This document shows positions 15,306 to 63,584 of a stretch of DNA of 64,000 bases, piece by piece; the stretch's first letter is position 1; each line of letters opens with the position of its first letter. The notes below the pieces were generated by a model. The model was given only the letters and a program-made list of their open reading frames with translations, did no database searches and was not told where the DNA came from. The position numbers and the translations under genes were made by a program. This stretch comes from Parcubacteria group bacterium LiPW_30 (GTDB lineage Bacteria; Patescibacteriota; Minisyncoccia; Phycocordibacterales; VMEP01). The stretch is from the NCBI GenBank assembly GCA_007375595.1, contig VMEP01000001.1, positions 89,274-153,273 of the forward strand. Reading direction: 5' to 3'.

Positions 15306-15634
15306 GTCTTTTTTAGATTACTTTGTCTTTAATTAGTCTATAAGACGTCCATTATATTCCCTGTTGGCTTATTCTGGCAATAGCTTTGTAAAACATAATG
15401 CTGTTGAATCCCTGTCATCTTAATTTCTTTCTTTACTTTTCCCTTTGGAAAACACGTATAAAACTTTGCTAAGTTTTTACTATGCTCGCGTCGCCACGCT
15501 GCGCAATGTTTTCCAAAGAGAAAAGTCCTAGTTTTTAAGAAAAACAAAAAACTAATACTTTTTAGAATTTTGAGAAGCTAACAACTAAAAGCTAGTTAAA
15601 ATATGTTATTATTTGTGGTAATTAAATAAGTTCT

Positions 15635-19320: not shown

Positions 19321-19346
19321 TCTTGAGAACCTTGTTAAAAAGTCGT

Positions 19347-19375
19347 TGACAGAACGGCTTTTTTTCTTACAATGA
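19347..19375 (+). promoter_or_regulatory. candidate sigma70-type promoter upstream of efp (TTGACA -17 bp- TACAAT)
   Basis: TTGACA at 19347-19352, 17-nt spacer, TACAAT at 19370-19375; ~100 nt upstream of efp start. Confidence 0.35.
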
Positions 19376-25427: not shown

Positions 25428-26447
25428 TTAGAACTCCCTAACTTTAATAGTGCGGACAACAACACGAACTGTTTTTGAGTCCTTTCTGTCACTATAGGCG
25501 TTTGAACAAGTTAAGGTGAAATCTGTAGTTTCAAGAAGTTTACTTGTTGGATAGTCAAACGATGCCCCAGCAGAAAATCTGTCTGTTTCTTTTCCACTAT
25601 CTACCCCTACTCCAACAATAGTACAACCAGTGGCACCGTTAACAAACCAACTAACTACTGATCTCGTATTGGAGAAAATTGGATTTGGTGAAGCAGTAAG
25701 GGTCCAGTCCGTAGCTTGCGTCCATGTTGATTCGTCTGATTTCAAAGGATCAACATACGGACAATCTGACGGGCAGTTTGAATTATTTTCATTTATATCA
25801 CACGTCCCATTTCCGCCTGGTGTTGGGCAAGTCGTACAATTTAAATCAGATGGCGTAATCGCTGTGCATACACCAGTACAGCCAATTATTCCATTTGCTT
25901 TTTGGCCACAACTATTTGGCGCCGACTGACAAGCTACTCCATATCCAGAAATAACTGGCGGTGCAGTCTTCTCACTACAAGTTCCATCACAACCTATTGT
26001 GCCTTGATTTGACTGCCCACACACATTGGTCGCCAAACACACTCTTCCAAAATTAGGAGGAAGCGCTGGCGCAATAGCTCCACAAATTCCATTGCAATCT
26101 ATTGTCCCTTGGCTTGATCCACAAACATTTGCAGCTGAACATGTTTGACCATAATAAACACTACAAGATATATACCCGCCACCACTTGCGCCAGCATCAC
26201 CACCACTTGCTCCGGCACCTGATCCAGACCCCGCACCGGCGGCACCACAACCGGCGGCACCAGCAGAAGCAGAACAGCTTGCTGCCGCAGCAGCTGAACC
26301 AGAACCAAAAGCAATATTATAAAAAACACCCTTGGGTAAAACTGATACTGGAATAAAAAAATTAAAAAAGACTAAAACACCAAAAAAAAGAACTAGAGCC
26401 AATATATCCTTCTTTGTTTTATTTAACATAAAATTAAACTCTTTCAT
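25428..26447 (-). CDS. secreted Cys/Gly/Ala/Ser-rich modular protein with C-terminal beta-sandwich domain; paralog of the 30501..31406 protein
   Basis: 339 aa; N-terminal signal/TM, G/A/S/C low-complexity tract, repeated CGQSNQGTIGC…C and CGQKANGIIGCTGVCTAITPSDLNCTTCP modules, C-terminal …LTASPNPIFSNT…GATGCT…DYPTSKL…TDFTLTC…VRTI..REF domain. Confidence 0.7.
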   Translation of the reverse strand: MKEFNFMLNKTKKDILALVLFFGVLVFFNFFIPVSVLPKGVFYNIAFGSGSAAAAASCSASAGAAGCGAAGAGSGSGAGASGGDAGASGGGYISCSVYYGQTCSAANVCGSSQGTIDCNGICGAIAPALPPNFGRVCLATNVCGQSNQGTIGCDGTCSEKTAPPVISGYGVACQSAPNSCGQKANGIIGCTGVCTAITPSDLNCTTCPTPGGNGTCDINENNSNCPSDCPYVDPLKSDESTWTQATDWTLTASPNPIFSNTRSVVSWFVNGATGCTIVGVGVDSGKETDRFSAGASFDYPTSKLLETTDFTLTCSNAYSDRKDSKTVRVVVRTIKVREF

Positions 26448-29099: not shown

Positions 29100-29134
29100 T
29101 TATTAAATATAATGCCAATCTGTATAAAAAAGAA

Positions 29135-29167
29135 ATGCCACCCATACTTGAAAAAAGTGGGTGGCAT
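29135..29167 (-). terminator. rho-independent terminator after the 29194..29793 gene
   Basis: ATGCCACCCA…TGGGTGGCAT stem followed by T-run on minus strand. Confidence 0.55.
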
Positions 29168-29193
29168 CAAAGCTGATTGATTCATGTCCCGAA

Positions 29194-29793
29194 TTACTTC
29201 CTGACTTGAATCGCAGAGACCAATTCGCGAATCTTGTCCTTTACTGTCGAGTCGATGTTGCCGGCGTTCTGAACCCAGATGGTAAAGCCTAGGGTTTTTT
29301 CCTGCTTCCCGTCACTGTCGACAAACGAGCCACCGGGGGGCATCGGGATGTCGAAGTGATAGAACGAAACAAAGAACGTCCCGTGCTGAAGTGGCACTTC
29401 ACAATCGCGAATGACCCCCTTCTCGTTGACTGCGGAAGGTGCCGCTTCTTCGCGACACTTAATCTTCCCGTAGCCAAGGCCGTCTGACATCGCGTTATAA
29501 ACCACCTTCTCGACTGCCTCGGGCGTCACCATTTGGGTACGCCACAGGACAACGGTCCAGTAGGTTCTATCTTTCTGGATGCACACGGGGAACCGGAAAG
29601 TATTAACCCCCTCCCTCGGAAGTACTTGGTTTTTTGCAGAACATTTCAGGTCCCAGGAGAACCCGAAGAAACTCCGTTCCTGTTCGCGAAGGTCAATGGT
29701 AAAGCCATAGTTGTCGAGCAAAAATGGCTTCATCTCGACCGCCGAGGCGACAGACCAAAAAGCGCAAAGCAAAGCGAAAATCGTTTTTTTCAC
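29194..29793 (-). CDS. small secreted protein of unknown function, compositionally foreign (GC ~50%); GTG start with strong SD
   Basis: 199 aa; signal peptide MKKTIFALLCAFWSVASA; AAGGAGA SD; GC markedly above neighbours. Confidence 0.6.
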   Translation of the reverse strand: MKKTIFALLCAFWSVASAVEMKPFLLDNYGFTIDLREQERSFFGFSWDLKCSAKNQVLPREGVNTFRFPVCIQKDRTYWTVVLWRTQMVTPEAVEKVVYNAMSDGLGYGKIKCREEAAPSAVNEKGVIRDCEVPLQHGTFFVSFYHFDIPMPPGGSFVDSDGKQEKTLGFTIWVQNAGNIDSTVKDKIRELVSAIQVRK

Positions 29794-29935
29794 GGCTGTC
29801 TCCTTAAAAAAATCGTTATGTCAAAAAGCGGAATTTACCGCACAAAGCTAATGTTAATAATACATGAAATATACATTTTGTCAAACACACACCATGTATA
29901 AAATAATCGATAAAAAATAAATACTATATGTATAA

Positions 29936-29980
29936 AACAAAAAAAATGGGGGGGTACTTTACGTACCCCCCTTTTTTTCT
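29936..29980. terminator. bidirectional terminator (GGGGGGGTACTTTACGTACCCCCC hairpin with A/T flanks)
   Basis: Strong GC stem flanked by A-run and T-run between the two GC-rich genes. Confidence 0.65.
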
Positions 29981-30000
29981 TCTTGGCTTTCGCCGAATGT

Positions 30001-30405
30001 CTACATCTTCCAGATCTTCCGGACGGCGACGGCCTTGTTCTTCTCGCTGATGTACGGGCTCATTTCACAGGCCATCGTGGCGATCTGTCGCAAAATCAAC
30101 TTGTTGCGCGCGGATTCGGCGCCGGCCGGTGTGTGTACGCGAAACATCGCAGCCGCAACGGCAACGTTGAAGTTCTTGACGCGGCACTGCTTGTCCATCT
30201 TTTCCTTGTAGTCGTTGGCGAGAATAACGACGGTGTCGCGATATTCCTGACCACCGGCCGTCCACATCGCCTCAAGAACCATTTGGTTCGCGGCTTCGCT
30301 TGCGGAAAGCTTCTTTCCGGGTTGCGCAGCAACGGCCGTGGTGGCGAAAAGGAATGCGCCCAGCGCCAGCGAGACCAGCTTCAACAGCGTCTTCGTGCTT
30401 TTCAT
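30001..30405 (-). CDS. small secreted protein of unknown function, compositionally foreign (GC ~55%)
   Basis: 134 aa; signal peptide MKSTKTLLKLVSLALGAFLFATTAVAA; the overlapping + strand ORF (29983..30429) is Arg-rich antisense noise. Confidence 0.6.
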   Translation of the reverse strand: MKSTKTLLKLVSLALGAFLFATTAVAAQPGKKLSASEAANQMVLEAMWTAGGQEYRDTVVILANDYKEKMDKQCRVKNFNVAVAAAMFRVHTPAGAESARNKLILRQIATMACEMSPYISEKNKAVAVRKIWKM

Positions 30406-30500
30406 GGCCCTTCTCCTTTGTTTGATTGAATGTACGAGTCGTTGCTCCGGGAACTCCGAAACATCTTTATATCATACAGATAATTTAATTTTTGTCAAGT

Positions 30501-31406
30501 CTAAAACTCCCTAATATTAATAGTACGAACAATAACACGAACAGTTTTTGAGTCACTTCTACCACTGTAAGCATTTTTACAAGTTAAAGTGAAGTCAGTA
30601 TTTTCTTGCAGTTTACTTGTTGGGTAGTCAACGGCTGGTCCTCCTACATATCTATCGGTTTCTTTTCCGGTATTTACCCCAACTCCAACCAAAGTACATC
30701 CGGTTGCTCCAGTAACTTCGTAACTTACCATTGTTTTTGTATTAGAGAAGATTGGGTTTGGAGATGCTGTAAGAGCCCACTCTGAAGCAGGTGTCCAGAT
30801 AGCACCTTCTCCTGCTGGAGTTGATGTTGTTGCTGGAGCAACATATGGACAATCTGCTGGGCAGTTTGAATTATTTTCTTTTGGATCACAAACTCCGTTA
30901 CCTTTTGGTGCGGGACAAGTTGTACAATTTAAATCAGACGGTGTAATCGCTGTACATACACCAGTACATCCGATTATTCCGTTTGCTTTTTGCCCACAGC
31001 TATTAGCAGATGACTGACATGGTGTTCCGTATCCAGAAGGTAGTGCTGGTGCGGTGGTAACACTACAACCACCACCACAAACTATTGTTCCCTGGTTTGA
31101 CTGCCCACAAACATTTGAGACTAAACAAACTCTTCCAAAATCAGGTGCATCGTGATAATCACCAGACTCACAAGATGCTGGTATTATCTCCCCACCAAAA
31201 ACTCCTCTGGGTGAAATAGAGGTAAAACCAACTTCTAGTGACCCTGTGGCTATTTTATTTTTTGTATTGGAAATATTTTCTCCCACACTAAAAATAAACA
31301 ACACTCCGACAAAAAAAATAAGCAAAAATAATTTTCTTTTAATTTCTCTAAAAAAATAGCTGTCTTTATTCATTGTTGTTAATTTTATAATATCACGTAA
31401 AACCAA
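30501..31406 (-). CDS. secreted Cys-rich modular protein; last gene of the sagB-ycaO-TPR operon; paralog of 25428..26447
   Basis: 301 aa; N-terminal TM/signal, CGQSNQGTIVCGGGCS… and CGQKANGIIGCTGVCTAITPSDLNCTTCP modules identical to paralog, shared C-terminal beta domain. Confidence 0.7.
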   Translation of the reverse strand: MVLRDIIKLTTMNKDSYFFREIKRKLFLLIFFVGVLFIFSVGENISNTKNKIATGSLEVGFTSISPRGVFGGEIIPASCESGDYHDAPDFGRVCLVSNVCGQSNQGTIVCGGGCSVTTAPALPSGYGTPCQSSANSCGQKANGIIGCTGVCTAITPSDLNCTTCPAPKGNGVCDPKENNSNCPADCPYVAPATTSTPAGEGAIWTPASEWALTASPNPIFSNTKTMVSYEVTGATGCTLVGVGVNTGKETDRYVGGPAVDYPTSKLQENTDFTLTCKNAYSGRSDSKTVRVIVRTINIREF

Positions 31407-33721: not shown

Positions 33722-34453
33722 CTAAAAAGAAATCGTATAAACCAAACTCTCACTACTACCATCTAATTTAAGTAGACCCTCTACCCTTATATCACTGGAC
33801 GACCCATTTGGGATAAAAGTTAAACCATTCTCAACCCCAGACAACAATATATTCTGCCCAATATGCCCTGCTTCTAATAAAATATAACGATAACCCCGAC
33901 TTCCGTATTTACGTGTTGCACGATCAAAAACACTAGCTAGGCAAATCATTCCAAAACCGCCAACCGCCCATTTATCACTTTGATAGGAAAGTATATCGTC
34001 AGAAGAAAAACTTCTTCGCTCAACCAACTCAAGACTATGAGTTTGAAGTTCGTAATGATATACGCCAGATTCTAATTCTTCTATATTTTTAAACAAAATT
34101 AAATATAACTCGACTGAATACCTTGCTCCACCAGAAGGTGCTGTTCTATGAATTGTTCCGTCTTTTCTTTTTATTTCTCCGCAAGCACACTTTAATATTT
34201 TTGATATTTTCTCTAAAGTAACAAAATTGTCTGGTAACGATTTGCGGTCGGACGATCTTTTTTGTAAAAGATTAAATAATTCAGTATTAAAATTATCACT
34301 AAGTTTTATCGGGTCAAAAAATGGAATTTTCTTATACTCTGTGGTTTTCCAACTTATCGGCCACTTTGTTATATCAGCAGGGATTTTTATTAAACCACCC
34401 TCTGTTTTATCTTTAGTTGACCTGTGAAAAAATTTATATAAAAACGGTCTCAT
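33722..34453 (-). CDS. SagB-type (McbC-like) FMN-dependent dehydrogenase, nitroreductase superfamily
   Basis: 243 aa; nitroreductase RRSxR-like KRSSDRK and SagB signature …RTAPSGGARYSVELYLIL…; 4 bp upstream of the ycaO start. Confidence 0.7.
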   Translation of the reverse strand: MRPFLYKFFHRSTKDKTEGGLIKIPADITKWPISWKTTEYKKIPFFDPIKLSDNFNTELFNLLQKRSSDRKSLPDNFVTLEKISKILKCACGEIKRKDGTIHRTAPSGGARYSVELYLILFKNIEELESGVYHYELQTHSLELVERRSFSSDDILSYQSDKWAVGGFGMICLASVFDRATRKYGSRGYRYILLEAGHIGQNILLSGVENGLTFIPNGSSSDIRVEGLLKLDGSSESLVYTISF

Positions 34454-34506
34454 TGCGTGCTCATAATACTACATACGTAAGACTTCAGACAATTTATTAA
34501 AAACAA

Positions 34507-34536
34507 AGCGGGGCGGGTATTAAATATACCCGCCCC
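34507..34536 (-). terminator. terminator after GC-rich gene (GCGGGGCGGGTATTAAATATACCCGCCCCG)
   Basis: 10-bp GC stem; separates the GC-rich islet from the native sagB promoter region. Confidence 0.55.
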
Positions 34537-34565
34537 GGAAAATTCTGAAACACGTACTTTCCTTG

Positions 34566-35010
34566 CTACTTGACGACCTTCTTGAAGACACCGTTGTTGC
34601 GGCCGCCGGAAGGATCATGGTACCTGGCCCACAGCGTATCGCCGTGGTATTCAAAGATACAGGTACCGCTCCTTCGGGGATTGCATAGCCACGACAACTT
34701 GTCGCCCTTGATTTCTGCTCCTTCGAACGGCCATGGGTTCGTGGAGTTGTTTTCTCCGTACGAACCGCTGGCGACACAGTTCGTGCCGACCTCTTTGGCA
34801 TGAAGGCGCATCTCGCCGTAATTGCCGTAATCCCATTTGCCCACCCAAACTCCGACGAAGGCGACGCAATTTGCTGGGACAACAACCTCTGGCACCGACT
34901 TGGTGGCGTCACCTTCACCCGCCGCGAGCATCGTTTTTTGGGCAAAAGAAGGCAGGCCGAAGCCGAGGCAGAGACAAGTGGAAAATAACACCAAAAAACT
35001 CCTGATTTTC
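34566..35010 (-). CDS. small secreted protein of unknown function, compositionally foreign (GC ~53%); start at MKIRSF with GGAGG SD
   Basis: 148 aa; signal peptide MKIRSFLVLFSTCLCLGFGLPSFA; six overlapping spurious ORFs in other frames typical of local high GC. Confidence 0.55.
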
Positions 35011-35140
35011 ATGGCAACCTCCTCTTGATTTAAAATGAGTACCACTCTAAAGGTGCGGTCTTTTGTCACCTATCCATAATTGTACCATATTTTATAAATA
35101 ATGCAAGTACACAAAACCCGAGTGAAACGATTAGTATAAA

Positions 35141-36331
35141 TTACTTAAAATCAGGCTCCGTCCAACCATTAGACATGAGCCATGACTTAAATTCCGGTAC
35201 TTTATTCGCGATTAATAAAACATTCCACTTGCTGTAGATATCCATTCTTACATAATTACTACCTTCTAATTTTTGCTCAAACTTTGAATTTATTATTTTC
35301 TTAATAACACTTCCTTTGTATGAACTAGGTTTCTTTGTGTCAAAATTAAGAATAGGACCTAGTGCCATTTTTATTTCTTCGGAAGTACTTGAATCAAGTA
35401 TTGCCAAAGTTGATGAATTTACAAGAGAGGTGAAAATATTTAACTCAATAACAAAACGAGAGGAATAATCCATTGCAAATGTAAAAATTTCCCGCGATGT
35501 TTTAGCTGAAGTGTGATTGATGCCCATGGCCTCAAGGTAACGAAGGGTGGAGGCATATTGATTTAACCCAACCAAAATATCTCTGGCTGGAATATCGCTT
35601 GATGTTAACTTGCCTTCTAGTATTTTTACAACGTCATCGTTGGATGCAGACAAAAACTCTAACGCTTTTTTTATGTCACGCTCCATATTCTTTAAATAAA
35701 CACCTCTCTCCCCTTCTGGTATTTTCTTTGATCTAATTACTTTGAAATAAGTATTTCCGGCATACTGGTTTGCAGCTGTTGCTAATCCTGCAATATCAAC
35801 ATAACCATGTTTATGCAACACTTCTACGTAAGCAAGGTATATATAAAAAGACACCTCAGTATACGTTTGTGGTAATTTTTTATCCTTTAGTTTAAGAAAC
35901 TCTTCTGGATAAATACCTTCCGCTTCTTTAAGAAAAGAGAGTTCTGGGTGATTTTCTACATAATCATATATTTCATAGATATTACCCCCGTTATCGAAAA
36001 ATCTATGCGTAATGAAATAAGCGGCAGATTTCGTTTCCGCGTCATTAACACCTTTTTTAATATCCTCCACTAAAGATTTCTGAAGGGCTTCAGGTTTATT
36101 CTGTAACAAACTTTCGTAATAAGCTTTATCGTTCTGTAACAAACTTTCGTAATAAGCTTTATCGCGTTGTGCTATTTTGTTTGCCTTATCTTTTTCAAAA
36201 AAATAAAAAACGCTAAAAGAAATAAAGAAAAAAACAACAACTAGCGCAAAAAGGCTAACAAAAACAGCCTTGGATGAGATCTCGCTCACTGGCTCTTCTT
36301 GGTTATAAAAATCACCTTTTATTTCATTCAT
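35141..36331 (-). CDS. hypothetical membrane-anchored protein with internal 11-aa tandem repeat
   Basis: 396 aa; N-terminal TM; RDKAYYESLLQNDKAYYESLLQN from a 33-bp tandem DNA duplication (~36090-36160). Confidence 0.5.
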   Translation of the reverse strand: MNEIKGDFYNQEEPVSEISSKAVFVSLFALVVVFFFISFSVFYFFEKDKANKIAQRDKAYYESLLQNDKAYYESLLQNKPEALQKSLVEDIKKGVNDAETKSAAYFITHRFFDNGGNIYEIYDYVENHPELSFLKEAEGIYPEEFLKLKDKKLPQTYTEVSFYIYLAYVEVLHKHGYVDIAGLATAANQYAGNTYFKVIRSKKIPEGERGVYLKNMERDIKKALEFLSASNDDVVKILEGKLTSSDIPARDILVGLNQYASTLRYLEAMGINHTSAKTSREIFTFAMDYSSRFVIELNIFTSLVNSSTLAILDSSTSEEIKMALGPILNFDTKKPSSYKGSVIKKIINSKFEQKLEGSNYVRMDIYSKWNVLLIANKVPEFKSWLMSNGWTEPDFK

Positions 36332-36334
36332 AAC

Positions 36335-36616
36335 TTAAAATCCACCGTCGCCACTGCTACTACAATCACCGCCACCATCACCGCCACCACTACCCCCATC
36401 ACCATCACCACCACTACCCCCATCACCACCGCCACCAAAAGGATTAAATGGAACATCTGCTTTAGCAACAGGCACAAGGAAAGAGCTGTCTTTTGAGTAG
36501 TTAGAGCTTATGTAACCACCAATAGTTCCCAGTATCCCAGTAACCAAGATACTTAATAAAAATGATGTTTTCTTTTTTGCTTTTTGAATCATATTAGTGG
36601 TAAGTATATCACCCAA
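36335..36616 (-). CDS. small membrane-anchored protein with Gly/Asp/Ser-rich C-terminal tail (GGGGDGGSGGDGDGGSGGGDGGGDCSSSGDGGF)
   Basis: 93 aa; TM segment then low-complexity G/D/S/C tail; 3 bp downstream of the next gene's stop. Confidence 0.4.
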   Translation of the reverse strand: MGDILTTNMIQKAKKKTSFLLSILVTGILGTIGGYISSNYSKDSSFLVPVAKADVPFNPFGGGGDGGSGGDGDGGSGGGDGGGDCSSSGDGGF

Positions 36617-40257: not shown

Positions 40258-41583
40258 CTAATTACCAATTGCACTTGAGATTTTGTTTTCCAATTCCGTA
40301 ATCAAAACACGTTCCTGTTCCCCGTTATCACGATTGCGTATTGTCACCGTGCCGTCTTCTAAGGTATCAAAATCAATCGTCACGCAAAACGGTGTACCAA
40401 TTTCATCTTGTCGGCGGTAACGCTTACCAATATTTCCATTGTCATCCCAAGCAACACGAGGAATTACTTTTTTTAAGTTTGTATAAACTTCACGCGCCTT
40501 TTCGATAAGCTCTGGTTTATTTTTCAAAAGAGGAAATACAGCAACAATAACAGGCGCAATACTTGGAGATAATTTTAAATAAACGCGAGTTTCACCGCCA
40601 AGATTATCTTCTGTGTAAGCGCTGGTTAAAACAGCAAGAACTGTTCGTTCAACACCAAATGATGGCTCAATAACATGTGGAACATATCTTTCTTTTGTTT
40701 CTTCGTCATAGTAAGACAAGTCAGTACCACTTCCTTTTGAGTGCGCAGTTAAGTCAAAATCGGTTCTGTATGCCAAACCATAAAGCTCTTTACGCCCAAA
40801 AGGGAAATCAAACTCAAAATCAATTGTTCGCTTAGAGTAATGCGCGCGGTCACCATCCCCCACTTCAAGTTCGTAAACATTTTCTTCTTTGATACCAACC
40901 TCTTTAATCCAACCCTTCATCGCTAAACGAAATTTCTCAAAGGCATTTTCCCATTCAAGAGGTTTTACGAAATACTCAATCTCCATTTGCTCAAACTCAC
41001 GCGCGCGAAAAATAAAATCTCTAGGAGCAATTTCGTTTCTAAAAGCTTTACCAGTTTGCGCCGTGCCAAAAGGTAATCGTGGATGAAAACTATCTACAAC
41101 ATTTTTAAAGTTAACAAACATTCCCCCGGCGGTTTCTGGACGCAAATAAACTACAGATGATTCATCTTCTGTCGCGCCGGCATTTGTCTTGAACATCATG
41201 TTGAACTGCCTCTCTCCCCCGAGCTTCCCACCACATTCTCCACACTTCTCTTTATTCTCTAATGTATCTGCACGAAATCTTTTTTTACATTTATCGCACT
41301 CAGTAAGCGGATCGGAAAAACCAGACACATGACCAGATGAATCCCAGACTTTTGGATTCATTAAAATCGCGGCATCAACTCCATACATATCTTCTTTTTC
41401 TTCGACAAATCTTTTCCACCATAAATTAATTATGTTTCGTTTTAAGGCGACACCAAGTGGGCCGTAGTCCCATGTACCAGCAAGGCCTCCGTAAATTTCC
41501 GAACCTTGATATATAAACCCGCGTCGCTTACAAAGCGACACAATTTTCTCCATAAGCCCTTCTTCTTTTTTGTTGTCAGACAT
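40258..41583 (-). CDS. glyQS: glycyl-tRNA synthetase (alpha2 type)
   Basis: 441 aa; MEKIVSLCKRRGFIYQGSEIYGGLAGTWDYGPLG… canonical GlyQS N-terminus; class II motifs. Confidence 0.9.
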   Translation of the reverse strand: MSDNKKEEGLMEKIVSLCKRRGFIYQGSEIYGGLAGTWDYGPLGVALKRNIINLWWKRFVEEKEDMYGVDAAILMNPKVWDSSGHVSGFSDPLTECDKCKKRFRADTLENKEKCGECGGKLGGERQFNMMFKTNAGATEDESSVVYLRPETAGGMFVNFKNVVDSFHPRLPFGTAQTGKAFRNEIAPRDFIFRAREFEQMEIEYFVKPLEWENAFEKFRLAMKGWIKEVGIKEENVYELEVGDGDRAHYSKRTIDFEFDFPFGRKELYGLAYRTDFDLTAHSKGSGTDLSYYDEETKERYVPHVIEPSFGVERTVLAVLTSAYTEDNLGGETRVYLKLSPSIAPVIVAVFPLLKNKPELIEKAREVYTNLKKVIPRVAWDDNGNIGKRYRRQDEIGTPFCVTIDFDTLEDGTVTIRNRDNGEQERVLITELENKISSAIGN

Positions 41584-47642: not shown

Positions 47643-49217
47643 TTACATTTTCTCTGGCGCAGAGATACCTAAAAGCGACAGTGTTTTCGCTAAAATTATT
47701 CTGGTCGACAAAACAAGCTCTAGAGCCCCAACGTTGTAATTATCCTCCTCAATAACTCGCGTGTCGCGGTAAAACTGTGAAAATTGGGAGGCAAGCTCAT
47801 AAGCATAAGTGTTCAAACGGTTGACCTGACAATCCTCTGTTGATAATTCAACAATTTCTGGAAACTGTAGGAGCTTAACAGCAAGGTCTCTTCCAGATTT
47901 ATTTTTCAAAATTTCATCAAGTTTAATTCCGTTAGGAGAAAGTGCTTTAGTATTTGCGATTATCGATGACATGCGGGCATGAGCATACTGCACATAAAAA
48001 ACAGGATTCTTGTCTGAATGCTCTTTAGCTAAAGCAACATCAAACTCCATATGGGTATTAAGCGCGCGTTCATTATAAAACCAACGCACCACATCAAGAC
48101 CAATTTCTTCTACCAAATCTTCAAGTAATACAACATTACCTGCGCGCTTCGACATTTTTGAAACTTCACCGTTTTCTTTAAGCGAAACGAGTTGGGTTAT
48201 GAAAACCTTAAACTCTCCTTCCCAACCAAGCATTTTTTTAACAGCCGTCATTCGTTTAACATGTCCGTGATGATCTGCTCCCCAAACATTAATCACTTCC
48301 CCATAACCACGCGAGAATTTATCTGAGTGATACGTAATATCTGAAAGAAAATAAGAAAATGACCCGTCGCTTCTTAAAACAACTCTGTCTTCGTCGTCAC
48401 CATATTCTGTTGTCTTTGCCCACCACGCTCCCTCTTTTTCATAAACAAGATTTTTCTCCTTGAGCTCATCAAACATTTTTTGATTAGAACCACTCGCTCT
48501 TAACTTCCCGTCTTCTGAATACCATTCATCAAAACGAACTAAAAGTTTTTCTTCAATAAAATCTCGGTTATCTCTTTGTATTAAAGTCGCTAGTTTAAAT
48601 CCGGCATCGGCTTCGCTCATTTGCGAAAAATCGTTTTGCTCTATAAGAGCGGATGTCATCTCTCCTTTATATTGTTCCCCTGTCCCAAGCGCTAATTTAC
48701 CAAGCTCTTTAATTTGATTGCTCTCGCGGGAATCATTCACATAATATTCACGTGTCACATTTCCTCCTGCAAAAGAAAAAATGTTCGCTAAAATATCTCC
48801 GTAAAAAGCTCCACGACCATGACCTAAATGCAAAGCGCCAGTTGGGTTTGCTGAAATAAATTCAATATTTATTTTTTTACCTTTTATAAAATCAAAACCT
48901 TTTTCAGACTCTTTTACTGTTTTATTTAGTTCACTTAAAACAGCTTCGGAAGATAAAGTGAAATTTATAAACCCAGGTCCGGCAATATTCGTCTCTGAAA
49001 CTTCATCTATAAATTCTTTATCTTTTTTAAGCTCGTCTATAACCAACCCTGCAATATCTTTTGGGTTTTTATCCGAAATCTTAACGACCATCGCAACATT
49101 AGTAGTGTAATCACCAAAACGATTATCAGCAGAAATATTAAAAGAAACTTCCCTTAATTCCGGGAAAATATCCTTGAGAACTTTATCTAATTTTTCTCTC
49201 AAAAAGTGAACCACCAT
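47643..49217 (-). CDS. argS: arginyl-tRNA synthetase
   Basis: 524 aa; …FISANPTGALHLGHGRGAFYGD… HIGH region; MSKR motif. Confidence 0.9.
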   Translation of the reverse strand: MVVHFLREKLDKVLKDIFPELREVSFNISADNRFGDYTTNVAMVVKISDKNPKDIAGLVIDELKKDKEFIDEVSETNIAGPGFINFTLSSEAVLSELNKTVKESEKGFDFIKGKKINIEFISANPTGALHLGHGRGAFYGDILANIFSFAGGNVTREYYVNDSRESNQIKELGKLALGTGEQYKGEMTSALIEQNDFSQMSEADAGFKLATLIQRDNRDFIEEKLLVRFDEWYSEDGKLRASGSNQKMFDELKEKNLVYEKEGAWWAKTTEYGDDEDRVVLRSDGSFSYFLSDITYHSDKFSRGYGEVINVWGADHHGHVKRMTAVKKMLGWEGEFKVFITQLVSLKENGEVSKMSKRAGNVVLLEDLVEEIGLDVVRWFYNERALNTHMEFDVALAKEHSDKNPVFYVQYAHARMSSIIANTKALSPNGIKLDEILKNKSGRDLAVKLLQFPEIVELSTEDCQVNRLNTYAYELASQFSQFYRDTRVIEEDNYNVGALELVLSTRIILAKTLSLLGISAPEKM

Positions 49218-49815: not shown

Positions 49816-50748
49816 GTGAAATATACCTCAGCTGAAAAACCGCCAGTTGTGGCCTACAAGCCATACCGAGACCGGAAGCCAGACTATCAATTCCGGGACC
49901 TTGCAACCAGCATCATGGAATACGGTGAAATTTCCCACCCACCACAAGGAGAAGAAGCAAAACGCTTGAGTGGAGTGCAGCTCCGCTATCAGATGGAAAA
50001 CGGATTTCCCCTCATGACTGAAAGAAATCTGACCCTTGCGCTTGGGGGGTCGAACGGTGAAATAATCGGAATGACCCACGGCGAACGCACCCTCAACGGC
50101 CTCATGAAATATGGGTGCCCGGAAGTATTCTGGAAAAATTGGGTTACCCCGGAAAAATGCGCCATTTTTGGACTCCCCCCAGGAGATCTTGGTGACGGTT
50201 CGTATGGCCCTCAGTTCGGGAAACCGAAATGCGAAGGTGGTGAATTCAGTCAAATCGAGGCAGCCCTTGCGCTTGCAAAGGCTTTCCCCGATACCAGAAC
50301 CATTCGGATAACAACCTGGCGCTTAGTGGAGCTGCTACTGAATGCCGATCCAAAAAAACGGCGGACGGTGGTTGCTCCGTGTCACGGTGATTTCACAGTC
50401 GTAATCAACCGGGAAAGAAAGACGCTTAAGATCATTCATCGACAGCGCTCTGCTGACCTTCTCGTCGGATGGACAGGCAACGTCACTCAATATGCCTGGA
50501 TGGGTATGGTGTTTGCACACCTCCTTGGTTACACAATGACCGAGCTTGTGCACTACATTGAAGACGCCCATATTTACAAGCGTCAATATGAATCTTTCCG
50601 CGAACTGTTCGCAAACCAAACCAAGCCGTTCCCGACGGTTACCATTGACGAAACTGTCACTGACTACTTCAGTTTTCGTCGCGAACATCTCTTCTTGGGC
50701 AATGACTACGATTGCGGGCCGAAAATGATCATTCCAACCCCCATCTAA
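49816..50748 (+). CDS. thyA: thymidylate synthase family enzyme (ThyA-like, divergent; dUMP-directed by active-site Asn)
   Basis: 310 aa; ThyA core: …ENGFPLMTER…, catalytic VAPCHGDF, …HRQRSADLLVGWTGNVTQYAWM…, …EDAHIYKRQ…; GC ~50%. Confidence 0.7.
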   Translation: MKYTSAEKPPVVAYKPYRDRKPDYQFRDLATSIMEYGEISHPPQGEEAKRLSGVQLRYQMENGFPLMTERNLTLALGGSNGEIIGMTHGERTLNGLMKYGCPEVFWKNWVTPEKCAIFGLPPGDLGDGSYGPQFGKPKCEGGEFSQIEAALALAKAFPDTRTIRITTWRLVELLLNADPKKRRTVVAPCHGDFTVVINRERKTLKIIHRQRSADLLVGWTGNVTQYAWMGMVFAHLLGYTMTELVHYIEDAHIYKRQYESFRELFANQTKPFPTVTIDETVTDYFSFRREHLFLGNDYDCGPKMIIPTPI

Positions 50749-50856
50749 ACGCTTTTCCCTTTCACAAAAATCGCCATTCGTGGCGATTTTATTTTTTGAC
50801 AAAAATTTTATCCCGACATATAAATAACACTAGTAAGAAACTAAGGAGACCTTTTT

Positions 50857-51327
50857 ATGAACAAACCACAAGTAAACATTGCACACGCCGTAACTGAAGA
50901 TTACCGCAAAACTCTAGAGCAAATTATCCGCGACGGAGTATGCCCTTTTTGCGTGGACTTCTGTCAGGGAAACAAGCCGAGGTATCACCCCAACCCAATC
51001 ATCATAGAAACAGATTGGTGGGCAGTAACTAAAAACATGCGACCATACCCTGGAAGCTCACTTCATTTACTTCTGGTGTACAAGAAGCATGTTCTCTATC
51101 CGTGGGAGATAGACCAGAAAGCTTGGGATGATTTGCGAAATGTTATGAAAAAACTCGCAACAGATTATTCCCTCACGCATGGGACTCTCTTCCAGCGCTT
51201 TGGCGATACCGAGTTCACGGGAGCAAGCGTGACCCACTTCCATGGTCAGCTCATCGTCGGTACATCAAGAAACGAAGGGACCGATCCATTGGTTGTCTAT
51301 TGTGGATACAAGGTTCCTGGAAAATGA
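50857..51327 (+). CDS. HIT-superfamily (GalT/Ap4A-phosphorylase branch-like) nucleotidyl transferase/hydrolase
   Basis: 156 aa; N-terminal Cys cluster CPFCVDFC and HxHGQ-type motif VTHFHGQLIV. Confidence 0.45.
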   Translation: MNKPQVNIAHAVTEDYRKTLEQIIRDGVCPFCVDFCQGNKPRYHPNPIIIETDWWAVTKNMRPYPGSSLHLLLVYKKHVLYPWEIDQKAWDDLRNVMKKLATDYSLTHGTLFQRFGDTEFTGASVTHFHGQLIVGTSRNEGTDPLVVYCGYKVPGK

Positions 51328-51338
51328 AAAGAAACCAA

Positions 51339-51370
51339 AAAGGCGATCTTTGCAGATCGCCTTTTTTTAT
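51339..51370 (+). terminator. rho-independent terminator for the thyA-HIT transcript
   Basis: AAAGGCGATCTTTGCAGATCGCCTTTTTTT. Confidence 0.65.
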
Positions 51371-51401
51371 TTTTATAAAAAACAAAGCCCCCGTAGGGGG
51401 C

Positions 51402-52253
51402 TTAAAATGAAACACGGACAACTTTCACTTCGCGGTTTCGAAGAGCCTCACGGCCATTCAAATTAGCGTAGCCGTCTTTAAAGTACACGCTCCGAACACG
51501 TGCCTCTGCAAGCATTTGCGCGCAAGAAACACACGGAAAGACTGTTTGGTAGATATCAGCCCCACGAAGCGAGATGTTTTTTCGCGACGCCGCTGCCGTG
51601 AGTAACGCTCTTTCCGCATGCATGAAAAGAGAACACTCAATCATCTCCCCTGCCTGAAAATTACTCCGGGGATCCCCATTCGCATACTGCTGTTGAGGCG
51701 GTACGCTTTCGTTGAATGCGGCCAAACGCTTCCCATCGCGAGTAACCGCAATGGCTCCAATCTGACGCCAAAAATCAGAACTCCTTTTACTGAGTTCGTC
51801 TGCTTGGCGCAAAAATTTCCGAGCAGCCTCTGACGATGTCACGATAATGTCTTCGTCTGGAGGAAGCTTGGAAAGCGCAGCCATTCCATCCCAACGGAGG
51901 AAGAACGGGATGAAAGTAATGCGTTTGCGGCCGAAAAATCTTTTAGCCACGTAACGCGAAACATCTTCGTCCGGAAGAATAAGTCGCACATCCTTCCGCA
52001 TCGCAAGAGACCTAAGACCGACCGTGTTTACAACTGAAACTAAGTCGAGTGCCGGCGATACCAATCCTTTGGTTTGATTCAACATCATCGCCAAAAGCTT
52101 GGGTTCAACAGCTCTCATGTCACGGGCTATCCCGACAATTGCGTGTGACACACTCGGGTGAAGTAAGTGAAGTTCTTGTGCCCCACTTTCTTCAATAAAA
52201 CGCCGATACCCTTCGTGAAAAACAGGGATGTATGCAACCGCAACGGTCCTCAT
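51402..52253 (-). CDS. fusion of an N-terminal domain of unknown function with a C-terminal cytidine/deoxycytidylate deaminase zinc-binding domain
   Basis: 283 aa; C-terminal CMP/dCMP deaminase motifs …CSLFMHAERALL… and …PCVSCAQML…; start overlaps upstream gene by ATGA. Confidence 0.6.
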   Translation of the reverse strand: MRTVAVAYIPVFHEGYRRFIEESGAQELHLLHPSVSHAIVGIARDMRAVEPKLLAMMLNQTKGLVSPALDLVSVVNTVGLRSLAMRKDVRLILPDEDVSRYVAKRFFGRKRITFIPFFLRWDGMAALSKLPPDEDIIVTSSEAARKFLRQADELSKRSSDFWRQIGAIAVTRDGKRLAAFNESVPPQQQYANGDPRSNFQAGEMIECSLFMHAERALLTAAASRKNISLRGADIYQTVFPCVSCAQMLAEARVRSVYFKDGYANLNGREALRNREVKVVRVSF

Positions 52254-52945
52254 GATTTCGTGCCACTTATTCGAGACAGGAAACCTTCAATGACGCGATG
52301 AAGCTCCTCTGCAAGCTGTGACGCCCCAGTCAGAATCAAGGCGGAAAGCCGTGCCGTGGTCGAGTCATCAGACTGAGGAACCAACCACTCCAGCCGGCCA
52401 CAATGCTTCATCAGGTGGTCGATATGACTCTGATCCACATCTTTGGTCCCCTTCGACATAATGAGGACATCGGGGTGAATTTTTTCGACAAGCTCTTCCA
52501 GTCGTGCCCCCACATCGCGCACAGTCACGAGGTCAACGTGCCTGGTATGCAATAGCATCTCGACACGATCACCAAATGCATCAAACGGCCGAGCAGGTTC
52601 TCCTGGTTTTTGCTTTCGCTGCCGTGTCAATTCGTCAGAGTCGACACCAACCACGAGAAAGTCTCCCGCCGCTTTCGCTTTTTCAAGGTAACGAAAATGA
52701 CCCTTATGCGCCATATCGTATACACCCTGAGTCAGAACAACGACAAACCCTCCTTCCTGCAAATGCCTGACCACGCGAACCAACTCCTCGTGGTCTTGCA
52801 CAAATCGTGTTTCCTGATTCCTTTGGCGGAAATCAAAAAGATTCTTGACGATTCGGGCAAACCTTGTTTTCGGTGATACTTCCATACAAACAGAACCTTC
52901 TAATGGCGTGTTCATTCTAGACTCCTCGGTAAATGGAAAGGTCAA
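52250..52945 (-). CDS. cytidylyltransferase-like nucleotidyltransferase (HldE domain II / TagD family, HxGH motif)
   Basis: 231 aa; …VVVLTQGVYDMAHKGHFRYLEKAKAAGDFLVVGVDSDELTRQRK… aligns to heptose-1-P adenylyltransferase / G3P cytidylyltransferase core. Confidence 0.6.
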   Translation of the reverse strand: MTFPFTEESRMNTPLEGSVCMEVSPKTRFARIVKNLFDFRQRNQETRFVQDHEELVRVVRHLQEGGFVVVLTQGVYDMAHKGHFRYLEKAKAAGDFLVVGVDSDELTRQRKQKPGEPARPFDAFGDRVEMLLHTRHVDLVTVRDVGARLEELVEKIHPDVLIMSKGTKDVDQSHIDHLMKHCGRLEWLVPQSDDSTTARLSALILTGASQLAEELHRVIEGFLSRISGTKS

Positions 52946-53079
52946 ACTGCGTTAATTTATATTCCTTGAGATGCCAAAAGTAAACCCCCTACAAAAAACT
53001 TACTTTACTCCACCCTATTTTCTTTGTTAGTCTAAGCAAAGAAAGTCCTTCCCATATACACAAGAAATGGAGCGTCGAA

Positions 53080-53580
53080 ATGTCAAAACCACAACTTGCC
53101 GTAATTGCAGCAATCGAGGAAAAAACCAGAGCGATGGGTATCAACAACAAACTCCTCTGGAGGATCAGTGGCGACCTTCCAAGGTTCAAGGCGCTAACCG
53201 AAGGTCAGGTAATTATCATGGGGAAAAACACCTACCTCTCCATAGGTAGACCACTCCCAAATCGCCACAATATTGTCGTCAGTAAAACACTCGGGATGGT
53301 TTCGGGGATCGCTGTTGCCCACTACTTTGAGAACGCTATCGCATTTGCGAAAACTCTCAACTCCGAAAAGATATTTTTTATCGGAGGAGGAGAAATTTTC
53401 CGTGCGGCACTCCCGATCGCCGACATGCTTTATCTAACGCTCGTTCGCGACAACGAAGTAAAAGCTGATGCGTTTTTTCCTACCTACGAGAAATCATTCG
53501 TACAGGTCCCTGGTTCAGAAGAATCTCATCTCGACCATAGCCCGCCATTTCGTTATGTAGACTTTGTTCCCCGAAGATAA
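53080..53580 (+). CDS. folA: dihydrofolate reductase
   Basis: 166 aa; …LAVIAAIEEKTRAMGINNKLLWRISGDLPRFKALTEGQVIIMGKNTY… DHFR signature. Confidence 0.85.
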   Translation: MSKPQLAVIAAIEEKTRAMGINNKLLWRISGDLPRFKALTEGQVIIMGKNTYLSIGRPLPNRHNIVVSKTLGMVSGIAVAHYFENAIAFAKTLNSEKIFFIGGGEIFRAALPIADMLYLTLVRDNEVKADAFFPTYEKSFVQVPGSEESHLDHSPPFRYVDFVPRR

Positions 53581-53658: not shown

Positions 53659-54081
53659 CTATTTAACCTCAATTCCGGCAGAACGAGCGGAACCTTCGAT
53701 TATTTTCATTGCTGCTTCAATATCGTTTGCAGTTAAATCTGGCATTTTCTTTTCAGCAATTTCTTGTAACTGCTGTTTTGTTATTTTTCCAGCTTTTGTA
53801 ACTTTCTGTTTAGCAGCTCCTTTCTCAATACCAGCTGCTTTCAAGATAAGTCCTGTTACTGGAGGTGTCTTAACAACGAAATCAAATGTTCGATCTTCGT
53901 AAACGCGGACAACAACTGAAACTTTTTCTCCAACATTCTCTTTTGTTGCTTCATTAAATTTATTAACGAAATCTCCAATGTTCACTCCGGCCTGACCCAA
54001 GGCAGGTCCTAGTGGTGGCGCAGGTGTTGCTTTACCGGCCGCAATTTGTACTTTTATTTTTTTTGTTATTTTTTTTGCCAT
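53659..54081 (-). CDS. rplK: 50S ribosomal protein L11
   Basis: 140 aa; …[21 protein letters not shown]… L11 signature. Confidence 0.95.
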
Positions 54082-54085
54082 ATAT

Positions 54086-54631
54086 TTATATTTTCTTTAC
54101 CTGAAGGAAATCAAGCTCAACTGGTGTCTCGCGACCGAACATCGAAACCAAAACCTTAACCTTGCCACGTTCGCTATCAACCTCAGAAACCCTCCCTTCA
54201 AGCTCCTTAAATGGGCCGTCGGTGATGGTGACCATTTCACCCTGTGTTAGGGCAATTGTATGCTTCACCGTATCAGATTTCATGCGAGCAAACAACCCAT
54301 CAACTTCTTTTTGATCTAGTGGAACTGGAGTTGTCCCTGCGCCAACGAAACCAGTCACACGTGGAGTGTTGCGAACAACATACCAAGAATCGTCTGTAAC
54401 AACCATATCAACGAGAACATATCCTGGGTAGATTTTCTCTTCGGTCTCAACACGCTTCCCTCCCTTTATCTTTATCTTCTTTTCAACTGGAACAATAATA
54501 TTAAAAATTTTATCTTCCATACCAAGAGACTCCACGCGCTGTTTTAGATTTCGCATAACGGCGTTTTCATATCCTGCATACGTGTGTATTGCGTACCAGT
54601 TTCTATCTAGATTTATTTCTTGCTTAGCCAT
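54086..54631 (-). CDS. nusG: transcription termination/antitermination factor NusG
   Basis: 181 aa; NGN domain ([14 protein letters not shown]) and C-terminal KOW. Confidence 0.9.
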
Positions 54632-54632
54632 G

Positions 54633-54815
54633 TTATTGCAAAATGAAAGTCTTTATCAAAAAAGTAAAACCGAAGTCAAAAGCACCAAGCCCATAGCCGA
54701 CGATTATCGAAATCAAAATAACAACGATGGTAAAAGCAATAGTCTGGGCTTTTGATGGCCAGCTAACATGCTTCATTTCGCCTTGTGTTTCCCTTAAATA
54801 TTCAGTTAATTTCAT
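54633..54815 (-). CDS. secE: preprotein translocase subunit SecE (60 aa; the track's 140-aa ORF is over-extended into the upstream repeat element)
   Basis: [22 protein letters not shown]…single TM…; canonical secE-nusG adjacency. Confidence 0.8.
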
Positions 54816-54916
54816 ACTTTTAGTTAAAAACGCCCCCTCGGGCATTTGCACCACTCTACCTCTTATTCGAAAAAAGGTCAACCTGGCTTTTTTCCCTTTC
54901 AACCTAAGAGCACGGA

Positions 54917-54995
54917 TAATTTTCTGCTGAAAATTTCCTCGAGCTCGCGTCGCCACGCTCGCTAGTCTCTTAAGCTGAAAGGTTGAGTGGTATGT
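54917..54995. repeat. copy of the GGATAATTTTCTGCTGAAAATTTCC element plus CTCGCGTCGCCACGCT box, between a terminator and secE
   Basis: 26-nt identity to copies at 5510-5535/5698-5723/63637-63662; the CGCGTCGCCACGCT box recurs at 15486-15500. Confidence 0.6.
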
Positions 54996-55072
54996 TTCAA
55001 AAAGAAAAGAAACCCAAAAGACAAAAAACAGGGGTGACCCCTGTTTTTTTATCACACCTATTTTCGTCCTTA

Positions 55073-63016: not shown

Positions 63017-63176
63017 CCACAAGTTGTGGTAAAAACAAAAACCCTGCGATAACATCAAGGGGTTTTTATATTTTTAAACAAATGTTTTTAAAAACAAAAC
63101 ATGGAAAAATATTTAGCCCAGGTGTATACTCTTGCCAGCTGAAAAAAGGTTCATTAAACAAAAAAGGAGGCACAAA

Positions 63177-63584
63177 ATGGTAAAGAAGACAAAACATGGA
63201 AGGGTCTCAAACGGAAGTGGCTGGGGAAGATCTTCCTGTGACGAATGTGACGAATCGACGAATGGAAAGGAGGTTATCCTGATATATTATCCATTGGAAG
63301 ATCATGTGGAACGTTACGATGTAACCTGTTTTCTAAAAAAGAACCCACGCCACCGTGTCCGCTACGAGATTGTTATGGCAATCATGGCAGTAAACGGCGT
63401 ACCTGAAGCATTCCAAGGAAACGGCTGCAACCTATGTGAGCAATCAACGGAAGGAGAGGACGTCCTTGTGTCCTATGTCCAAAAAAAGGGAGCTAGTCCT
63501 CGAAAATTCTTTGGCCACCTCTCCTGCTTTATGGGCGAAGACGAAGTGCGAAGTGCGCCTGATGTACATATCAGTACAAGATGA
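63177..63584 (+). CDS. tandem-duplicated CxxC zinc-binding-like small protein (start at MVKK with AAGGAGG SD)
   Basis: Two homologous halves: …GWGRSSCDECDESTNGKEVILIYY…H…CF and …FQGNGCNLCEQSTEGEDVLVSYV…H…CF. Confidence 0.5.
   Translation: MVKKTKHGRVSNGSGWGRSSCDECDESTNGKEVILIYYPLEDHVERYDVTCFLKKNPRHRVRYEIVMAIMAVNGVPEAFQGNGCNLCEQSTEGEDVLVSYVQKKGASPRKFFGHLSCFMGEDEVRSAPDVHISTR

Follow-up and report, generated by a model that had tools for sequence, protein, structure and literature searches.

Small secreted-protein genes with a persistent GC excess in a Parcubacteria genome: recent import or maintained codon usage?

What does it mean when a few small genes of a low-GC genome look as if they had come from elsewhere? 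The question is raised by a 64-kb stretch of the genome of Parcubacteria group bacterium LiPW_30 (contig VMEP01000001.1, positions 89,274 to 153,273; hereafter the window, with position 1 at its first letter), in which three minus-strand genes coding for small, predicted secreted proteins, here named P1 (29194..29793), P2 (30001..30405) and P3 (34566..35012), stand out sharply from their surroundings. A preliminary description of the window had interpreted them as recent acquisitions from a higher-GC donor, possibly a host bacterium, or else as the product of an assembly chimera. The analysis reported here points in another direction. In the reading that we favour, and to which we assign a probability of roughly one half, P1–P3 would be cassettes of a conserved secretome, strongly expressed and kept GC-rich in their codon usage by some active process.

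The compositional contrast itself is clear. The mean GC content of the window is 39.5% (standard deviation 0.057 in 300-nt sliding windows) and that of its native coding sequences ranges from 32 to 44%. Against this background, nowhere in the window does the GC content rise as high as at P1–P3 (peaks at 29108-29837, 0.56; 29879-30557, 0.593; 34432-35109, 0.577), not even in the 23S rRNA gene (0.523), and in 200-nt windows it is 0.52-0.59 inside the genes vs 0.25-0.39 in their flanks. The excess is concentrated at third codon positions, where the GC content (GC3) is 0.65 in P1 (overall GC 0.517), 0.77 in P2 and 0.66 in P3, vs 0.21-0.40 in native genes and about 0.28 in the immediate neighbours; the values at first and second positions (GC1 and GC2) are raised just slightly. 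Since the effect sits in GC3, amino-acid composition can be excluded as its cause. Codons ending in C and those ending in G are both more frequent, so that, for instance, CGC, GCC, CTG and AAG are found in place of AGA, GCT, TTA and AAA. The relative synonymous codon usage (RSCU) of the three genes is negatively correlated with that of native genes (r = -0.36) and resembles that of the native genes of higher-GC contigs (r = 0.43-0.62), namely L022 and L018, two relatives within Parcubacteria, and L001, a contig of 55% GC. Start and stop codons mark the place of the GC step, the promoters and leaders being AT-rich, and spurious overlapping open reading frames (ORFs) are piled up in all frames at the three genes. 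The preliminary description had already noticed the GC peaks, the spurious ORFs, the signal peptides, the separate terminator hairpins, the strong translation signals and the foreign-looking composition and codon usage, and all these observations hold; its coordinates for P1 and P2 also stand, while P3 starts at 35012 and not at 35010, and the background of about 35% GC that it gave has to be replaced by the values reported above.

If the three genes formed a recent island, a patchy distribution would be expected, and this is not what is seen: the same genes in the same order recur in L003/L015, L014, L013, L023 and others (L numbers designate the retrieved loci of relatives). In the window the minus-strand order is a gene for a 396-aa protein, P3, a SagB-like nitroreductase, YcaO, TPR, a gene for a Cys/Gly-rich 301-aa protein (g301), P2, P1, Lnb_N, PAP2_C and a PD40-like gene coding for 351 aa (g351); the exact or near-exact copies of P1–P3 in LiPW_30 are annotated as hypothetical proteins (LiPW30_108, LiPW30_109, LiPW30_114). 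The arrangement P3-SagB-YcaO-TPR-g301-P2-P1-Lnb_N-PAP2 is shared, in the window's order, by L003, L004, L005 and L006, obtained from several groundwater samples (L003 belongs to project PRJNA292723), and by L015, a contig of a metagenome-assembled genome (MAG); there the flanking proteins are 87-98% identical to those of the window, and the homologues of P1–P3 have a GC content of 0.52-0.57 in a 35% GC background. The segment P2-P1-Lnb_N-PAP2-g351 is retained in L014 and L013; in L017, L012, L016 and L027, P1 (42-62% identity; 42% in L017) lies near PAP2 and/or PD40-like genes, and L007, L023 and L024 carry P3. The P2 family is also present in two high-GC relatives, L018 (57% GC), with genes for a PQQ-propeller protein, a nitroreductase, YcaO and TPR nearby, and L022 (55% GC; Candidatus Parcubacteria according to NCBI), in a comparable neighbourhood, and in both its composition is that of the native genes.

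Word-based searches returned 14, 4 and 7 homologue clusters for P1, P2 and P3, respectively, and an exhaustive HMMER search yielded only 22 relatives of P2. Homologues outside Parcubacteria were sought exhaustively for P2 and by word-based and pattern searches for P1 and P3, and none was found; every homologue with a retrievable context is surrounded by Parcubacteria-like genes, with the sole exception of L001. The NCBI names attached to these contexts are Parcubacteria, Kaiserbacteria and, in the case of some automatically labelled MAGs, "Saccharibacteria". Neither a plasmid tblastn search nor scans of viral contigs revealed any relative of the three genes. At their loci in the window there is no integrase, no mobility domain in the neighbouring genes, no nearby tRNA target and no flanking direct repeat, the only repeats around them being two similar promoters and the terminator arms; no known RNA family of Rfam occurs in or around the three islets, the sub-threshold matches on the P2 terminator being judged due to chance. 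On the basis of these comparisons, P1–P3 are assigned to a conserved, clade-restricted predicted secretome of this Parcubacteria lineage.

The persistence of the GC excess can be followed along this phylogenetic depth. Between the window and its relatives, the number of synonymous substitutions per synonymous site (dS) of P1 is in line with that of the flanking genes, being 0.42 vs 0.26-0.45 for L003 and 1.05 vs 0.85-1.18 for L014, and synonymous sites are saturated for L013, L012 and L017; across the relatives the GC3 of P1 is 0.50-0.67, vs 0.27-0.43 in the flanks. As for P2, four low-GC lineages in which the amino-acid identity of the protein is only 42-79% have a GC3 of 0.77-0.83 in this gene, higher than in the high-GC relatives (0.70), and its divergence at four-fold sites is below that of the flanks in two of three comparisons and similar in the third. 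Over the 22 gene-locus pairs available, the GC3 of the three families (0.50-0.83) is uncorrelated with that of their flanks (0.26-0.67; rho = 0.05). Polarised synonymous changes in P1 amount to 16 from GC to AT vs 18 from AT to GC, where a neutral decay would predict a ratio of about 4-5:1 (binomial p ~1e-5), although the test comprises 34 changes in all and parsimony can over-count those from AT to GC, an excess of which is shown by the flanks as well.

A second contrast concerns the initiation of translation. P1–P3 possess Shine-Dalgarno (SD) sequences of 6-7 nt located 5-8 nt ahead of the start codon; SDs of at least 6 nt are found in all three cassettes vs 2 of the 55 other gene calls (Fisher p = 3e-4), and in 50 of these 55 the SD is absent or no longer than 4 nt. 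Ahead of native start codons, -10-like boxes cluster at a distance of 0-9 nt, with a mode of 6 nt (e.g., 58356-60077, 47643-49217, 40258-41583 and 33722-34453); the picture suggested for the genome of the window and for its relatives is one in which leaderless mRNAs are the default. The SD motif of the cassettes is conserved across deep relatives while the rest of the leader diverges. In the low-GC relatives that were checked gene by gene (L007, L013, L024), the genes bearing an SD are small GC3-rich ones, most of them coding for secreted proteins and including a fourth family, P4; one gene of this set, 80 aa long, has no evident signal peptide. L018 and L022, the high-GC relatives, have clear SDs at secreted-protein genes only (P2-like ones and, in L022, a rhodanese), and no composition contrast accompanies them. 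According to Tsurumaki et al. (2022, PMC9297842), just 48% of the 16S genes of Parcubacteria have a detectable anti-SD motif. Since some radical-SAM genes of L027 also carry SDs, the ribosome of this clade is probably able to use them.

The P4 family (L007:10799-11401 and L024:3431-4042, both on the minus strand) codes for proteins of about 200 aa with a signal peptide and an AAGGAGG SD; its GC3 is 0.62-0.67 vs a background of 28%. It is absent from the window; the gene adjoining the P1 relative on L001 shows a weak similarity to it (BLASTP E 3e-6).

The three genes share a common layout: each is preceded by a sigma-70-type promoter of consensus or near-consensus sequence and by a leader (about 55-63 nt) in which a hairpin lies close to the 5' end and a strong SD ahead of the ORF, itself GC-rich and followed by an intrinsic terminator (all the elements described here lie on the minus strand). 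In the case of P1 (199 aa, GTG start), the promoter (29857..29884, TTGACA-16-TATTAT, 11/12 consensus) is conserved in L003, and its TTGACA -35 box is kept in the relatives; the leader of about 57 nt (29794..29850) contains a small hairpin, GCGG-UAAAUU-CCGC, and the SD TAAGGAG (29800-29806), and in P1 relatives the leader of about 55-63 nt, the hairpin near the 5' end and the SD recur. The P1 terminator (29126..29167), a 10-bp hairpin (AUGCCACCCA/UGGGUGGCAU) followed by a T-run, escaped the terminator scan owing to its long loop and was read from the sequence; its stem is kept through compensatory changes in L003, L014, L013, L012, L011 and L017. The P2 promoter (30471..30498, TTGACA-16-TATGAT, 11/12) is 75% identical to that of P1 over 28 nt and is conserved in L003, L014, L013, L018, L022 and L020. 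The P2 leader (30402..30464) bears a hairpin (UUUCGG-AGUUC-CCGGAG) and the SD AAGGAG (30413-30418), and the strong P2 terminator (29939..29971) is a G/C hairpin of 9-10 bp between an A-run and a T-run, hence bidirectional, which is conserved in L003, L014, L013 and L018. In front of P3 a promoter was read from the sequence (35079..35106, TTGCAT-16-TACAAT), with equivalents in L003 (TTGTAT..TATAAT) and L007 (TTGCAT..TATAAT); it is followed by a leader of about 60 nt (35013..35072) with the SD AGGAGGT (35017-35023). The gene is separated from the SagB-like one by a strong terminator (34499..34537), whose 12-bp hairpin (9 G-C pairs), preceding a T-run, is near-identical in L003 and L007.

On both strands of the whole window only five promoters match the consensus at 11 or more of 12 positions, including those of P1, P2 and the 23S rRNA (12/12). 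The remaining two, both 11/12 (19346-19373 on the plus strand and 15351-15380 on the minus strand), lie one ahead of the EF-P gene, with a 99-nt leader, and the other ahead of a 280-aa orphan, with a 46-nt leader.

The P2 leader might also contain an upstream ORF (uORF) of 20 codons. Its AUG (30464) is located 6 nt past the -10 box, the same spacing as in native leaderless genes, and its UGA overlaps the AUG of P2 (AUGA). Such an overlapping uORF can be recognized in six of eight P2-family leaders and in one P1 relative (the loci concerned being those of the window, L014, L018, L022, L020, L012:153-178 and L001), and not in the leaders of P3 or P4. The candidate uORF of P2 may provide a link between initiation of the leaderless type and re-initiation at the SD. 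A further feature of these leaders is a hairpin of the form AAGAG-yA-rGAC-GGNN-GUCUUGCUC (approximate consensus), which is shared by the 5' leaders of SD-led secreted-protein genes of different families (P1, P2 and the secreted rhodanese) and genomes (L011:4610; L016:7912; L012:135 and 708; L018:5956; L022:7953 and 8539). Three variants of this motif searched over 277 kb gave 10 distinct sites, one of them a copy on a duplicate contig, and 8 of the 10 lie in leaders of SD-led secreted-protein genes; the cassettes of the window carry hairpins of other types. The leader hairpins were taken from per-sequence folds, as distant leaders do not align.

How might these features be brought together? 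The codon usage of P1–P3 would represent a maintained equilibrium and not the fading trace of an import. Selection, for instance for translation output or mRNA lifetime, might act on the coding sequence of mRNAs that have a leader and depend on an SD, and such mRNAs would sit among otherwise SD-less or leaderless genes. The cassettes are probably strongly expressed, a prediction that we base on the ranking of the P1 and P2 promoters among the five best of the window, on the SDs of at least 6 nt in all three and on the recurrence of this SD contrast in relatives, including L022 and L018, where composition does not differ. We favour selection because P1 appears to be inherited vertically with a stable GC3, because four-fold divergence is reduced in P2 (in two of three comparisons), because the GC3 of P2 is higher in low-GC genomes and because the boundaries of the GC-rich segments are exact to the codon.

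Several observations weigh against this idea, besides the limits of the polarised test mentioned above. The GC3 of P1 is not constant, ranging from 0.65 to 0.51 among close relatives. Ribosomal-protein and other core genes of the window show no GC3 enrichment, the value for L11 being 0.23, unlike P1–P3; since these genes are AT3-rich, it is doubtful that ordinary translational selection for expression is the cause of the bias. The folding z-scores of the mRNAs are 0.1 for P2, -1.8 for P3 and -3.2 for P1, the last being based on 20 shuffles only, and an explanation of the GC content by structured RNA was set aside on these values. The predicted functions derive from fold alone. Finally, the dS of P3 reaches 1.3-3.6, that is, saturation, between genomes whose SagB/YcaO flanks differ by 0.15-0.43; the tree of P2 disagrees with its flanks, the P2 of the window being closer to that of L014 than to that of L003, and no less close to that of L018 (57% GC; 51% identity) than to that of L013 (45%), although L013 is the nearer relative; and the deeper P1 identities no longer track the flank gene. 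The trees and distances of P2 and P3 are those of genes with allele replacement between lineages, and from this incongruence, together with the pattern of P1 at depth, it follows that inter-lineage exchange could contribute to the composition.

The alternative that survives best builds on these very data. According to it, the cassettes would form a shared gene pool, repeatedly exchanged among Parcubacteria of 35-60% GC by homologous replacement or mobile elements in a source-sink fashion, and their composition would be that of the pool, with no selection on GC. The saturation of P3, the incongruence of P2 and the behaviour of P1 at depth are all in agreement with this model, as are the independence of cassette GC3 from genome GC3, a codon usage resembling that of the native genes of L022, L018 and L001, and the presence of a promoter, an SD and a terminator in each unit. 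A further argument comes from L001, a contig of 55% GC on which a P1 relative (53% identity) lies with the gene of another secreted protein (L001:1046-9181); their neighbours there are Replic_Relax and a TrwB/DUF87-like coupling protein, a gene content suggestive of a plasmid or a conjugative element. However, the positions of the cassettes are syntenic and devoid of integrases, direct repeats and tRNA targets; within the subgroup of the window P1 is congruent with its flanks beyond a dS of 1, with a GC3 still of 0.51-0.65; and the GC3 of P2 in low-GC genomes exceeds that of the supposed high-GC source. Moreover, the neighbouring TPR gene has undergone allele replacement too (dS 1.14), yet it stays AT-rich. 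We regard the gene pool as a real possibility, although a less likely one than selection.

GC-biased gene conversion (gBGC), in turn, would require P1–P3 to be frequently recombining loci, perhaps antigen-like and under diversifying selection, the synonymous GC content of which has been driven up by biased repair. Recombination or allele replacement at P2 and P3 and the concentration of the excess at synonymous sites would fit such a process. Nevertheless, the GC3 offset of +0.35 to +0.5 is far above the gBGC effects reported for bacteria; the GC step ends exactly at codon boundaries instead of spreading over conversion tracts; the recombining TPR, g301 and g339 genes show no GC3 enrichment; and P1 is GC-rich without any excess of recombination in the close subgroup. 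This explanation appears improbable.

A still poorer fit is the recent acquisition put forward in the preliminary description, in which a higher-GC donor such as a host bacterium would have supplied genes whose SDs and codon usage are untouched donor signals. Composition, codon usage and SDs are indeed all atypical, and a block of genes in the same window (ThyA, DHFR, dCMP deaminase and others) combines an intermediate GC3 with SD-like sites and resembles a case of ordinary horizontal gene transfer (HGT); foreign genes are thus taken up by this genome. The hypothesis is contradicted, however, because equally GC-rich homologues exist in related Candidate Phyla Radiation (CPR) genomes: they are syntenic and GC-rich in L003/L015, L014, L013, L017, L007, L023, L024 and L027, in part beyond synonymous saturation, and the amelioration expected of a recent island is not seen, the GC3 being held and the polarised changes, few as they are, nearly balanced. 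Nor does a host donor find support, since the relatives of P1–P3 are small orphan families in Parcubacteria-like contexts (L001 apart), and the high-GC relatives possess the same families with the same cassette anatomy. What stands of the original idea is a horizontal component, visible in the incongruence of P2 and P3 and in L001; a recent import from outside we consider very improbable. The assembly chimera, that is, GC-rich reads of another organism joined into an AT-rich contig, has nothing more than the composition in its favour and can practically be dismissed, given that the same junctions recur in many assemblies and samples that are independent of one another (ERZ909572/74/77, SRR2177952, several MAGs, JGI contigs and an NCBI contig), that the GC steps coincide with start and stop codons, with AT-rich promoters, leaders and terminators seamlessly fused to GC-rich ORFs and co-conserved with them, and that the dS of P1 matches that of the flanks.

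Coming back to maintained codon usage, a broader and rather doubtful extension of it may be worth formulating. We can speculate that two expression regimes coexist in this clade: a default one, SD-less, often leaderless and AT-rich, and a small regulon of secreted-protein genes that are leadered, SD-led and kept GC-rich by synonymous selection irrespective of the mutational bias of the genome. The shared features of the leaders, namely the recurrent 5' hairpin and, in the P2 family, a leaderless uORF with its stop codon over the main AUG, would couple leaderless initiation to SD-assisted re-initiation, and the set-point of composition would be tied to the mode of initiation.

As far as the proteins are concerned, the N-termini of P1, P2 (134 aa) and P3 (148 aa) follow the pattern MK(K)-hydrophobic-AxA/SFA, with the putative signal peptides MKKTIFALLCAFWSVASA (before VE), MKSTKTLLKLVSLALGAFLFATTAVAA (before QP) and MKIRSFLVLFSTCLCLGFGLPSFA (before QK), read by inspection and conserved in the alignments; the charged N-terminus, the hydrophobic core and the small residues at -3/-1, also judged by inspection, are those of type I signal peptides, and lipoprotein status was rejected in that a conserved lipobox Cys is not present. 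Four Cys residues are invariant in P1 and four in P3, whereas in P2 C74 is invariant and C113 is found in at least 90% of the sequences. The dN/dS ratios of 0.12 (P1), 0.42 (P2) and 0.13 (P3) indicate purifying selection. All three are predicted to be small, disulfide-bonded, Sec-secreted proteins. Profile-profile comparison shows the families to be unrelated to one another. None of the three matches Pfam, NCBIfam or PHROG, PADLOC gave a marginal match for P2 only (E 0.002), and sequence-profile searches of the PDB gave nothing significant. P2, whose family is characterized by the motif EAMWxAGGxEY...MD..C, is on sequence criteria a member of an orphan family. The structure model of P1 (predicted local distance difference test, pLDDT, 79; predicted TM-score, pTM, 0.79) is confident, as is that of P3, and has the alpha/beta sandwich of the Mog1/PsbP-like superfamily, with helices on the sides of an antiparallel sheet that can be superposed on Mog1 or PsbP; to this superfamily P1 is assigned by fold, without belonging to any curated family by sequence profile. 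In that of P3 (core pLDDT above 90) an eight-stranded antiparallel avidin/lipocalin-like beta-barrel, which has a short N-terminal helix and whose first strand bears a GxW motif, corresponds to the calycin fold; the similarity to the avidin family is one of fold only (13-16% identity). Considering these fold analogues and the conserved position of P1 beside Lnb_N and PAP2_C, the proteins would act outside the cell, where their most plausible role is to bind or carry ligands that are hydrophobic or derived from the envelope. They might instead have an effector or immunity role, as the preliminary description had suggested, although no toxin partner is present. The possibility that P3 is a thiazole/oxazole-modified microcin (TOMM) precursor of the YcaO system was rejected, P3 being a folded barrel of 148 aa with a Sec signal and a promoter of its own, set apart by a strong terminator from sagB, which in L007 lies 3 kb away.

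Other features of the window deserve mention. No short TOMM precursor gene was seen near the YcaO, SagB-like and TPR genes. The region beside these is flanked by two paralogous genes (30501-31406 and 25428-26447) for secreted or membrane-anchored proteins with a Cys/Gly/Ser/Thr-rich centre, high GC2 and low GC3, which are possible substrates or surface proteins. A two-gene module (35141-36616) codes for a protein of about 90 aa (N-terminus MIQKAKKKTSF, a transmembrane helix and a Gly/Asp-rich tail) followed by one of about 380-400 aa without any domain match; it is duplicated in relatives (L007:6428-7858 and 9264-10743; also L024). A second, milder compositional class, with a GC3 of 0.44-0.57 and SD-like sites at several genes, comprises 49816-53580, with thymidylate synthase (ThyA), a 156-aa orphan with a TAAGGAG SD, dCMP deaminase, a cytidylyltransferase-like gene and DHFR, and 62327-63584, with a cation-efflux gene and a 150-aa orphan; the two blocks look like ordinary horizontally acquired nucleotide-metabolism genes. 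At 53659-55055, secE, nusG and rplK are not followed by rplA, the ThyA/DHFR block being found in its place. This absence fits the Parcubacteria subgroup lacking uL1, with which the lineages devoid of an anti-SD overlap (PMC9297842). The 23S rRNA gene (273-3552, minus strand) is 3280 nt long vs a model of 2925 positions, revealing insertions, and its promoter (3846-3873) lies about 290 nt upstream of it; no 16S or 5S gene adjoins it, and the 16S gene is absent from the window and from all the retrieved relative loci.

The case is of some general relevance, in that atypical GC content and codon usage are routinely read as recent HGT and such calls may be wrong in CPR genomes. A gene-specific force must act on P1–P3, be it selection at the synonymous level or an ongoing exchange through a pool common to the whole clade, and the link between the cassettes and their translation signals offers a handle on how Parcubacteria organise the initiation of translation. 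In addition, P1–P3 are prime candidates for the most abundant extracellular proteins (as predicted) of these presumed symbionts, and therefore for factors of host interaction or of nutrient and lipid scavenging.

How do the cassettes compare with known systems? With the classical HGT islets described by the amelioration model they share a sharp local deviation of GC content and codon usage, the small size and accessory nature of the genes and foreign-style translation signals. Unlike such islets, they are syntenic across the clade and not patchy, they lack mobility genes and insertion scars, they have not ameliorated even where synonymous sites are saturated, and their GC3 does not depend on the GC content of the resident genome. 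At the level of the folds, the identity between P1 and the Mog1/PsbP-like envelope proteins (M. tuberculosis Apa, LpqN and MTC28; Salmonella DcrB; TplEi, Tsi3 and SciW, which are immunity proteins and chaperones of the type VI secretion system) is only 8-13%, with no sequence match in Pfam or PDB and no partner toxin or transporter identified; P3 resembles the calycins (avidins, lipocalins and fatty-acid-binding proteins) without membership at the sequence level, and it has four invariant Cys residues.

In Bacteroidota, the SD-led genes are mainly targets of ribosomal-protein autoregulation, while here they are secreted-protein genes of deviant composition. The genome-wide absence of SDs and the presence of few SD-led genes are nonetheless common to the SD-poor Bacteroidota, to the Parcubacteria lacking an anti-SD (PMC9297842) and to the genome studied here. 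The architecture of the cassettes has counterparts elsewhere. Very stable mRNAs of abundant exported proteins are known from the 5' hairpin of E. coli ompA, the leader of B. subtilis aprE, the STAB-SD of B. thuringiensis cryIIIA and the "retroregulator" represented by the cry terminator. The single-gene unit, the strong promoter, the 5'-proximal hairpin, the strong SD, the strong 3' hairpin and the secreted or surface product are all found in P1–P3 as well. Differences lie in the coding body, shifted by +0.4-0.5 in GC3, and in the SD-less or leaderless rest of the genome. Expression-class codon heterogeneity and accessory secretome genes are known elements, and P1–P3 are not a new kind of system; what stands out is a "foreign" signature that outlasts the saturation of synonymous sites and goes together with a particular mode of translation initiation.

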